Positions 12,001 to 15,321 of a stretch of DNA of 15,321 nt are shown here, piece by piece; position 1 is the stretch's first letter, and each line of letters starts with the position of its first letter. The position numbers are program-made. The stretch is from a virus (Duplodnaviria; Heunggongvirae; Uroviricota; Caudoviricetes). Location of the stretch: IMG/VR virus record IMGVR_UViG_2703718673_000003; one strand, given 5' to 3'.

Positions 12001-15000
12001 GGAGCCTCATGCGGTGAAGTCCGTCGCCATTTCACATCCTTCACATCCCTGCCGGGGGAACTCTCCACCAGCGTCATACCACTGGACATAAATGTGGTGG
12101 TACGTTTTGAGGCAAGAGAGAAGGCATCCCCCTCGCCATCAATATCTTCCGGAAAACGGTCATAATCCGTCAGCGCCACGCATTTATAATCTGATGAGGA
12201 CATGATATTGACTGACGGCCAGCCGATTTTCAGGTAGTTGCCAGCAAGGAATGTTCTGTCATAAACGTTGTTGTCATTTTTGTTCGGACTCAGGCGACTG
12301 ACCACTTCCGGGCTGACGCGAAACGTTCTGGCGAGTCGTTTTTTGGAGTGTTCGCGGGCTTTTTCCTCCGTCATCTGAATGATCAGCATATCCGCAGGAT
12401 CGCAAATCACGTTGTAAATCACCCAGCCGTCAATCAGGCCGATAGTCTTGCCGGTTCGTGCCGGGCCAACAAATATCACTGCGTCGTATTCACGCGAGGC
12501 CAGGCAGTTCATCGGCTCAATAACATACGGTGCCACCAGCGGATCCCACGGGACTGAGTTCCCGGCCCCCATGGGCACCCGCATATACTGAGCAACGGCA
12601 TCAGCAACCCGCATTCGTCTCGGTGCGCGAAGGATATAACCTGAATCGGTTCGTGCTGCCTTTGCGGTTTCCTGATTCAGCATTACTCCTCCTGCTGTAA
12701 TTCCTCCTCATCATCCGCACCTGCTTCGGTCACCCGCAGGGCTATCTGATCGCGCAGATCATCAATAATGGACTGAACACGGCTCACAGCGGCAGGCTGC
12801 AGACCACAGTCACGTTCCAGAATATCCGGTAATGTCTCCAGCACCTGCACGACCGCTTTTGCCCAGATGGCAAACTCCCGTCTGACATCACTGGCCGGAA
12901 TGAGTTGTGCCGTTTCCTGTTCGAACTTAAGACGCTCACGTTCAGACTGATACCAGGCTTTGCGTTCATGTGGATCCATTTCGCCCTCAGCAACCGGCGG
13001 TGGTAACCCCATAAATTCAGTCAGAATATCGGTCAACCGGTATAGCTTGAGTTTGTCATGTCCACCAGCGGGACGAATGTTTTTCAGTCTTGCCACGACA
13101 GTCTGGCGGTGCAGACCAGATAAAGCCGCCAGTTGATTAATATTCAGCACCAGGTTTTTCAACTCATGATCCATATTTCCTCCGGAGAGCTTTAAACATG
13201 CATCGTGCGAACAACTTTAAGAAAACGCGTTCGATGTCGAACAAAAAACACTCAATTCGACATACAAAAAACAAATAACCATTAATAATCAATAAGATGC
13301 AAAGATGATGGTGGCCGATAAAAATGCAAAAACTAGCCTTTTTCCGCGACGCTCCCGCCCCGTGGCAGGCCACCCCACCGGGAGGAGCCGTCAGCCTGAA
13401 AGCCATGACGAACGTCTGATACAGCCCTTGCATGAATGGCATCGGGATAATCCAGAAAGGAATAGCATCGACCCACAAGAATCTGTGTGAGTGTCCTGTT
13501 TCTTCCACCCCCGCACAGGACTGGCGAGCATGAGGGACAAACCCGCGAATCATTAGCGCGGTAAAAACCCGGTGTGCATCGTTTTTGATTATTCCCGCAC
13601 ACTCGCGCAGAAGGAGTTCCCCGTCGGGCTACGGTCATGGTTAATGCGGGAATACAGCGACGATACAGCGCATGATGTGTCAGGCTTGAATACCTTTATC
13701 CGTTAAAAGGGATATCAGTTAAGTTATCCCGTGTAGGGTATAAGCCATTATCAAAGCCACTCTGTAGGGAGTGGCTTTTGTAATGGCAATAAAAAAGCCC
13801 CGCGAATGCGAGGCTAAATCCAGGTATTTTTAATGACTGGCTCTTATCTCAACGCAGCCCCTTACCGCGCGCCAGATGCTCAATATCAAGCATCAGCAAT
13901 GAGATGTTTAACCATGATTCACTCCAGAAGTGAGCACCACCCTGTCTACAGAGCCAGATGTGAAGGATGATGAGTAAAATTATCGCTATCATCGAAGGCA
14001 TTGCGTCCTGATGTATTCCTGAAGCGTTCTCAGTGCTGTTTGGTCGCGGATAATTCCGTCCCGGATACCGAGAACGTTTCGTCCAGCAACTGGAGAGAGT
14101 TCGACGGTGGCATCATTGCCCATGCCGGAGGCGCTGGAGGTTTCGTCTGAGGATGGCACAGGGCATTTTCCTTTGACGAACACCCGACCACCATTATCAA
14201 GCTTGCGCCGAAGAGCATCATTTTTAGCTTTCGCATCAGCTAACTCCTTCGTGTATTTAGCATCGAGTGCATCAGCAGCACGCTGGCGCTGCTGCATGTC
14301 AGTAATGGTGGCGGTCGCCTGCTTCAGCTCACTGACTTTTTTATCACGCTGTTCTTTATAGGCGATGGCGTTATCACGGTAATGATTAACCGCCCATGAC
14401 TGGCAGACGATGATGCAGATAACCAGAGCGGAGATAATCGCGGTTACTCTGCTCATTGTTGCCCCCACAAACAGACTTCACGCTCAATCTCGCGGCGAGT
14501 CATCAGCCCTTTCCATTGCTTACCGCCAGCGTATGTCCAGCGCCGTAGCTGATCACATGCGCCTTTGATATCACCCTGGTTTATTTTGCGAAGAAGCGTC
14601 GATGTTCTGAAATTACCAGCGCCCACGTTGTAAACGAACGAGTAAAGAGCGCCGCGCGTTGTTTCCGGTATATCGACTTTGATGTACGGGTTAATTTGTC
14701 TGGCGACCGTGGCAAGGTCTTTATTCAGGAGGGCTTTGCATTCTGCTTCGGTATACGTTTTACCGGGAATGATGTCTTTTCCGGTGTGTCCGTGACATAC
14801 AGTCCATACGCCAACGATATCTTCGTATGGTATGTAGCTGACACCTTCCAGGCCATCGTCACCACTCGGACCAGTGATGAGCACAGACGCTATGGCAGCA
14901 GCCCCACCACCAATAGCAGCAGCAACAGCCTTGCGTAATGATGGCGACATTATTCACCTCTCGCAGCCTTACGCTTATCTTCTTTAATCTTGAAATAAAG

Positions 15001-15321
15001 GTTTGTCAGATACGTCAGCAAGCCAAACACCAAGCTACCCAATACGCCTATTGCCACCCACTGGGATGGGGAGACTTTGTCCAGCAACTGCAGTAGCCAG
15101 TATCCCGTCCCCACCGCTGACGTGAAGTTATCCGGAAGCTGACAACAATAAAAAGCCACCAGTTAATTCCTGATGGCCCTGATGCATAAACGTCATAATA
15201 CCTGACTGTTATGATTGACAATAATGATAATGTTTATATAGAAAGGTTCCCGATGTGTGTTACATATCATTTCTCCACGGGGAATATCCCCACGCCAGCG
15301 CAGACTCTTTTACCCGTTCTC

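Follow-up and report, generated by a model that had tools for sequence, protein, structure and literature searches.

The 15,321-nucleotide (nt) stretch of viral DNA analysed here, IMG/VR record IMGVR_UViG_2703718673_000003 (called the window throughout, at its full length), carries a lysis cassette in which an open reading frame (ORF) related to S21, the holin of phage 21, lies directly upstream of a signal-anchor-release (SAR) endolysin and the spanins. The ORF corresponds to ECs_0818, the class II holin gene of prophage Sp3 in Escherichia coli O157:H7 Sakai (annotated essQ; NP_308845.1 / WP_000284524.1; the prophage is named CP-933K in EDL933), which has the same locus, neighbours and leader. 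The features of the cassette were as follows:

15159..14950, minus strand: S21-type holin ORF of 69 codons with a GTG start, from the ORF listing
15127..15159, minus strand: leader DNA read as ORF codons 1-11, non-coding in Sakai and PV15-279, where it lies 5′ of the annotated ATG
15124..15126, minus strand: deletion junction, with TTC (Phe12) in place of 54 nt, from pairwise alignment and the intact sequence
14950..15123, minus strand: retained 3′ part of the pinholin gene, ORF codons 13-69 and stop, equal to ECs_0818 codons 15-71 and stop
15142..15180, minus strand: hairpin resembling an intrinsic terminator, with its T-rich tract, 11 pairs and a 7-nt loop, from a terminator scan
14453..14950, minus strand: intact SAR endolysin of the R21/RrrD type, 165 amino acids (aa), Pfam PF00959
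13989..14456, minus strand: intact Rz i-spanin (Pfam PF03245/PF06085 for Rz and Rz1 together; Sakai ECs_0820/ECs_0821)
14030..14236, minus strand: intact Rz1 o-spanin lipoprotein embedded in Rz (same Pfam families and Sakai genes)

A preliminary description of the locus had reported a holin ORF at 14950-15159 with a GTG start, a Cys-Cys pair, a Pro-Asp pair and no second in-frame Met. All of these were found, and the strand can be added as minus. The pairs are Cys5-Cys6 and Pro9-Asp10, and no ATG codon occurs anywhere in the ORF, so that a second in-frame Met, and with it the dual-start motif (Met1...Met4), is absent. The same description had proposed a pinholin/SAR-endolysin cassette and a close resemblance of the C-terminal two thirds to S21, and both proposals were borne out. 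ORF residues 13-65 matched positions 11-63/64 of the Pfam profile PF04971 (Bacteriophage P21 holin S) with 93.1 bits (E = 1e-26; cut-off 26 bits), leaving the first 10 profile positions unmatched; the intact 71-aa protein matched positions 1-63 with 112 bits. Residues 13-69 were identical to S21 residues 15-71 at 46 of 57 positions (81%). The S21 sequence used for comparison has 100% identity to the phage 21 record OL657228.1, whose annotation gives both dual-start products. The R21-like endolysin that follows was 95% identical to phage 21 R (156/165, the N-terminal SAR stretch included) and matched PDB 3HDE, 3HDF and 4ZPU. Its ATG overlaps the holin stop codon (TAATG) and is preceded by its own Shine-Dalgarno (SD) sequence, GAGAGG (duplex -7.1 kcal/mol), and Rz/Rz1 complete the cassette. 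Endolysins of the SAR class are Sec-exported proteins that remain anchored, in inactive form, in the energised membrane until a pinholin collapses the proton motive force and thereby frees them (PMC9636201, PMC6116005).

Once reverse-complemented, the window was the Sp3 prophage of Sakai (NC_002695.2 901600-916971) except at one spot. All 15,321 nt matched Sakai Sp3 by BLAST at 100% identity in two pieces, the Sakai span being 51 nt longer. Identity over the whole window was taken from the BLAST score of 28,290 bits, as expected for about 15,319 matching bases without a mismatch, and the holin region was additionally aligned directly to Sakai. The same two-piece match was obtained with EDL933 and many further O157:H7 genomes. 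The break falls at the 5′ end of ECs_0818, where 54 nt are replaced by TTC or, equivalently, 51 nt are deleted and ACC is changed to TTC. The two alleles read:

Intact allele: ...GTCAGCTTCCGGATAAC GGGAGACGGGGT ATG TAC CAG ATG GAA AAA ATA ACA ACA GGT GTG TCA TAC ACC ACG TCA GCG...
Window allele: ...GTCAGCTTCCGGATAAC TTC ACG TCA GCG...

In the intact allele the leader reads ...CCGGATAAC GGGAGACGGGGT ahead of ATG TAC CAG ATG, and the replaced 54 nt are GGGAGACGGGGT together with the fourteen codons from ATG TAC CAG ATG through GTG TCA TAC ACC. The lost segment holds the SD sequence GGGAG, Met1 and Met4 of the dual start (MYQM) and codons 1-14, whose residues form the N-terminal half of the first transmembrane domain (TMD1), including the cytoplasmic Lys6. 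Everything else is unchanged: codons 15-71 of ECs_0818 and all flanking DNA are 100% identical in the window, and the retained part at 14950..15123 is likewise 100% identical at the DNA level to Sakai Sp3 and to PV15-279. The intact gene (216 nt, 71 aa) is carried by Sakai, EDL933 and hundreds of O157:H7 genomes, and the intact allele with its leader was present at an identity of at least 99% in 520 E. coli records. Since flanks of 100% identity border a clean 51-nt gap, the difference is a deletion and not a divergence. As to the dual start of the intact gene itself, neither of the residues that separate Met1 from Met4 in M-Y-Q-M (L002 6208-6219; deleted in the window) is a Lys or Arg, in contrast to M-K-S-M of S21 and M-K-M of lambda S107. 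The longer product would not carry an additional positively charged side chain, and classical antiholin action is open to doubt for it.

The origin of the unusual N-terminus follows from the reading frame. Because the net loss of 51 nt is a multiple of three, the leader is now in frame with the rest of the pinholin gene. It is open in that frame back to a TAA, and the first start-like codon after this TAA is the GTG at 15159. An ORF finder therefore extends the gene upstream to the GTG, the leader being both in frame and open after the deletion. Residues 1-11 of the ORF are the 3′ arm of the hairpin, the T tract and the spacer, as translated. The same leader was found translated in an over-extended gene call of the intact allele from O157:H7 SS52 (P0005), which reads ...GGLFYCCELPDCGRRGMYQMEKITTG..., that is, the window leader ('FYCCELPD..GRRGMYQM') ahead of the true MYQM start.

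The translation signals of the two alleles were then compared. The hairpin stem-loop spans 15180..15152 on the minus strand, in the leader of the lysis cassette, with the T-rich tract after it, and the RNA fold of a 76-nt stretch gave -21.6 kcal/mol (z = -2.9). The GTG (15159..15157) sits inside the 3′ arm of this 11-base-pair, terminator-like hairpin. Its sole SD-like element is an AGGA 7 nt upstream (-4.3 kcal/mol), partly within the stem, whereas Met1 of the intact gene has an SD sequence that forms a duplex of -7.4 kcal/mol with the anti-SD at a spacing of 6 nt. A ribosome-binding site and start codon of its own, as a functional pinholin gene should have, are lacking in the window allele. 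RNA folding of the intact allele also paired CUUCCG with CGGGAG, the Met1 SD sequence (L001 about 3176-3195). The CTTCCG 5′ arm remains in the window at 15138..15133 (minus strand), and the SD-bearing arm was removed by the deletion. This pairing is reminiscent of the RNA structures by which dual-start holin genes fix the ratio of their two start codons.

Altogether, these data make it very probable that the ORF is the class II pinholin gene of Sp3/CP-933K with a private 5′ deletion that silences it, and that its odd N-terminus is untranslated leader. The Cys-Cys and Pro-Asp pairs then belong to no transmembrane segment that evolved in a protein, because the first ~10 codons would be that leader. 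The marks of a pseudogene are present together: an intact orthologue exists at the same locus, the start signals were lost without a conserved replacement and the host element is defective. Judged by its sequence, the gene is best described as a 5′-truncated remnant of a known gene and as a member of the S21 family; gene, prophage and family are already known, and no new lysis-timing design is involved. The preliminary description had left two options, an impaired holin or a divergent N-terminus with an evolved GTG start and a different timing control. The former was the correct branch, the SD sequence, Met1, Met4 and codons 1-14 having been deleted, and the latter gives way to a net deletion of 51 nt relative to an otherwise identical Sp3 locus. 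It had also suggested that an alignment might expose a misread 5′ end; the 5′ end was not misread, as the window has no ATG start and the ATG belongs to the intact allele only.

At the protein level, the retained part carries the C-terminal part of TMD1 (with the GYWLLQLL patch), the loop, the whole second transmembrane domain (TMD2) and the charged tail, and the strongest hydrophobic segment of the pinholin (19 residues) is the same in the window ORF as in the intact form. Of the two TMDs required in the family, TMD2 is intact and the N-terminal half of TMD1 is replaced by leader-derived residues. The window cassette shares with phage 21, the source of the PF04971 prototype (S21-68 pinholin / S21-71 antiholin), the gene order S-R(SAR)-Rz/Rz1 and the overlap of holin stop and endolysin start. 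S21 has an SD sequence, the dual start M-K-S-M and a complete SAR-type TMD1, all three of which are deleted in the window gene. A delta-TMD1 allele of S21, reportedly described by Park et al. in 2006, is said to show that TMD1 is dispensable. The window remnant is roughly like the engineered N-terminal truncations of S21-68 (S21 4-68 ... 24-68) in that it keeps the aromatic patch and TMD2, but those constructs had proper translation signals and the remnant has none. The S21-68 truncations still form pores until the YWFLQW patch is gone, and those without K3 trigger faster, with K3-dependent timing lost (bioRxiv 10.1101/2021.04.20.440580). EssD of DLP12 and other S21-type holins of cryptic E. 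coli prophages are comparable in family, in their setting within a decaying lambdoid prophage and in the adjoining RrrD-type SAR lysozymes; unlike the window gene, EssD is full-length with its start retained (P0058, 71 aa). Further aberrant pinholin alleles were seen in public E. coli data. One (P0001, 97 aa) has an internal duplication of 26 residues, another (P0002) a 3-residue TTS duplication, and two (P0009, P0016) have foreign N-termini joined just before VSYTTSAV or TGYW. These last two indicate that 5′ damage to the pinholin gene recurs.

The deletion allele itself was then sought in public collections. The junction was not found by BLAST in 5,426 complete E. coli genomes, where the best matches were in two pieces with 51 extra nt, nor in 50,697 phage records, where the best match, phage Evi, was also in two pieces. 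An exact junction 31-mer had no match in IMG/VR or in the GTDB representative genomes, and an exact 23-mer had none in the JGI metagenomes. Shortening the query to a 17-mer gave 18 and 27 matches, all in unrelated taxa and consistent with chance; a single locus among them, in GC-rich unrelated DNA, reached 20 nt. The 69-aa product was absent from an exact-protein look-up among 153 billion gene positions. A search of 5.8 billion protein clusters returned 502 homologues, and the N-terminus of the window ORF was absent from the best 120 of them; over-extended gene calls aside, these covered at most 91% of the query, mostly 83%. Within the reach of these searches, the deletion is private to the window sequence. 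Two possible sources of the TTC were considered and rejected. Inheritance from a natural allele reading 'SYFTSA', with which a clean deletion would suffice to explain the event, found no counterpart, since neither FTSA nor a Phe at the junction occurred among the same best 120 of 502 homologues and CATACTTCACGTCAGCGG was not found in IMG/VR. A template elsewhere in the window was dismissed as well, the junction 13-mer occurring at the junction alone.

By removing the SD sequence, both starts and the first 14 codons, the deletion would leave a remnant that is translated poorly or not at all. The cassette would thereby lose its timed membrane-depolarising trigger and keep an intact SAR endolysin and Rz/Rz1. 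Were the late operon transcribed, lysis would be expected to depend on slow spontaneous release of the tethered endolysin and to be delayed and gradual, not sharp. SAR endolysins reportedly leak out slowly without a holin, as Xu et al. in 2004 and Park et al. in 2007 are said to have found. Alternatively, pinholins might be supplied in trans by other lambdoid prophages of the same genome; S21-type holins matched at 6-11 places per O157 record. The prophage in which the deletion lies lacks a repressor, Cro and the O/P replication genes, its integrase and Bet are disrupted and its portal is defective, and in experiments it showed no circularisation or excision, replication or packaging, its lysis module having been scored intact in Sakai (PMC2669165). 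Because Sp3 is already defective and immobile, the loss of a lysis gene from it is expected. Loss of the pinholin may thus be a further step of decay, the lysis module being under no selection or being selected against as its stray expression is harmful.

Some observations weigh against a remnant silenced by a private deletion. GTG starts are used in E. coli and an AGGA lies 7 nt 5′ of this one, so that translation from the GTG is possible, and with the YWLLQL patch and TMD2 retained even a low-level product could be active. The allele has been seen nowhere else, its biological reality thus resting on one sequence, and a 3-nt filler with only 2 nt of microhomology is not textbook slippage.

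Among the alternatives, the one with the most in its favour concerns where the deletion came from. The gap could have arisen in sequencing or assembly, or by editing of the record, in which case the real sequence would be the intact Sp3 pinholin gene with its SD sequence and MYQM. We regard this as unlikely, yet as a possibility to be taken seriously. Outside the gap, the window agrees with many O157:H7 genomes at every base, the junction and the 69-aa product were absent from all collections searched, and the net loss is exactly divisible by three, with the TTC filler left unexplained. However, private indels are common in cryptic prophage genes, other 5′-disrupted alleles (P0009 and P0016) are public and the sequence bears no mark of an artefact within it. 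An artefact would in any case bear on the origin of the deletion; what the given sequence encodes stays the same. A naturally diverged S21-family holin, with an evolved GTG start, a different first transmembrane segment and a different timing mechanism, would account for the open ORF and for an N-terminal segment about as weakly hydrophobic as a SAR-type TMD1. It is hardly credible and is refuted by the alignment, in which the window and the intact allele agree at 100% on either side of the clean gap, and by the fact that the 'new' residues are a conserved non-coding leader.

A further alternative takes the 69 codons at face value, as a GTG-started chimeric protein without the Lys anchor that either triggers early, as a pinholin without timing, or modulates the pinholins of other prophages by co-assembly. 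TMD2 and the aromatic patch are intact, S21 truncations without K3 pore faster and stay active until YWFLQW is removed (bioRxiv 10.1101/2021.04.20.440580), a weak AGGA precedes the GTG by 7 nt and each O157 genome has several copies of S21-type holins. On the other hand, the GTG and some of the AGGA are base-paired within a stable hairpin, which doubles as a putative terminator, the N-terminus occurs in none of the homologues compared (the best 120 of 502), and Sp3, which lacks repressor and replication genes and does not excise, is a transcriptional orphan (PMC2669165). We consider such a protein improbable. Its most specific form is more improbable still, namely that low-level translation from the GTG yields a chimeric pinholin lacking both the Lys anchor and an antiholin form, which co-assembles with other S21-type pinholins, including those of the Shiga toxin (Stx) phages. 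If this were true, a cross-prophage lysis modulator would have been born of decay, and through it the moment of lysis, and with that the release of Shiga toxin, would change.

Further features lie elsewhere in the window. Upstream of the holin, the divergent hypothetical gene ECs_0817 has its 5′ end in the window, cut by the window end, and a sigma-70-like site lies just upstream of its start; holin leader and ECs_0817 promoter share one 140-nt intergenic region. A stretch between the spanin genes with the small ORF ECs_0822 on one side and the terminase small subunit on the other has no gene annotated in Sakai and probably represents the cos/packaging region. The portal gene is in two pieces, its downstream part being a portal pseudogene in the Sakai annotation, a second and already published defect of Sp3. 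A long ORF corresponds to the RefSeq fusion of a ClpP-like prohead protease and the major capsid protein, a usual feature in this group of O157 lambdoid prophages. The positions are:

15202..15321, plus strand: 5′ end of ECs_0817, with a GTG at 15257
15202-15231: sigma-70-like site
13175..13850 (about): stretch with no gene annotated in Sakai
9320..10444 and 8863..9225, minus strand: split portal gene, as ORFs of 374 aa and 120 aa (Sakai ECs_0826/ECs_0827)
6891..9110, minus strand: ORF of the protease/capsid fusion

The case carries a caution for gene calling in phage and prophage sequences. An in-frame deletion of a start region leads an ORF finder or a reader to report a divergent N-terminus with an alternative start, and here the extension of the ORF into the leader masks that a pinholin gene has simply been inactivated, the gene and the defective prophage both being well characterised. 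Should the allele be real, it would mark one more step in the decay of Sp3 and offer a natural cassette with a SAR endolysin but no pinholin; its interest for the question of how lysis genes are disarmed in cryptic prophages is minor.

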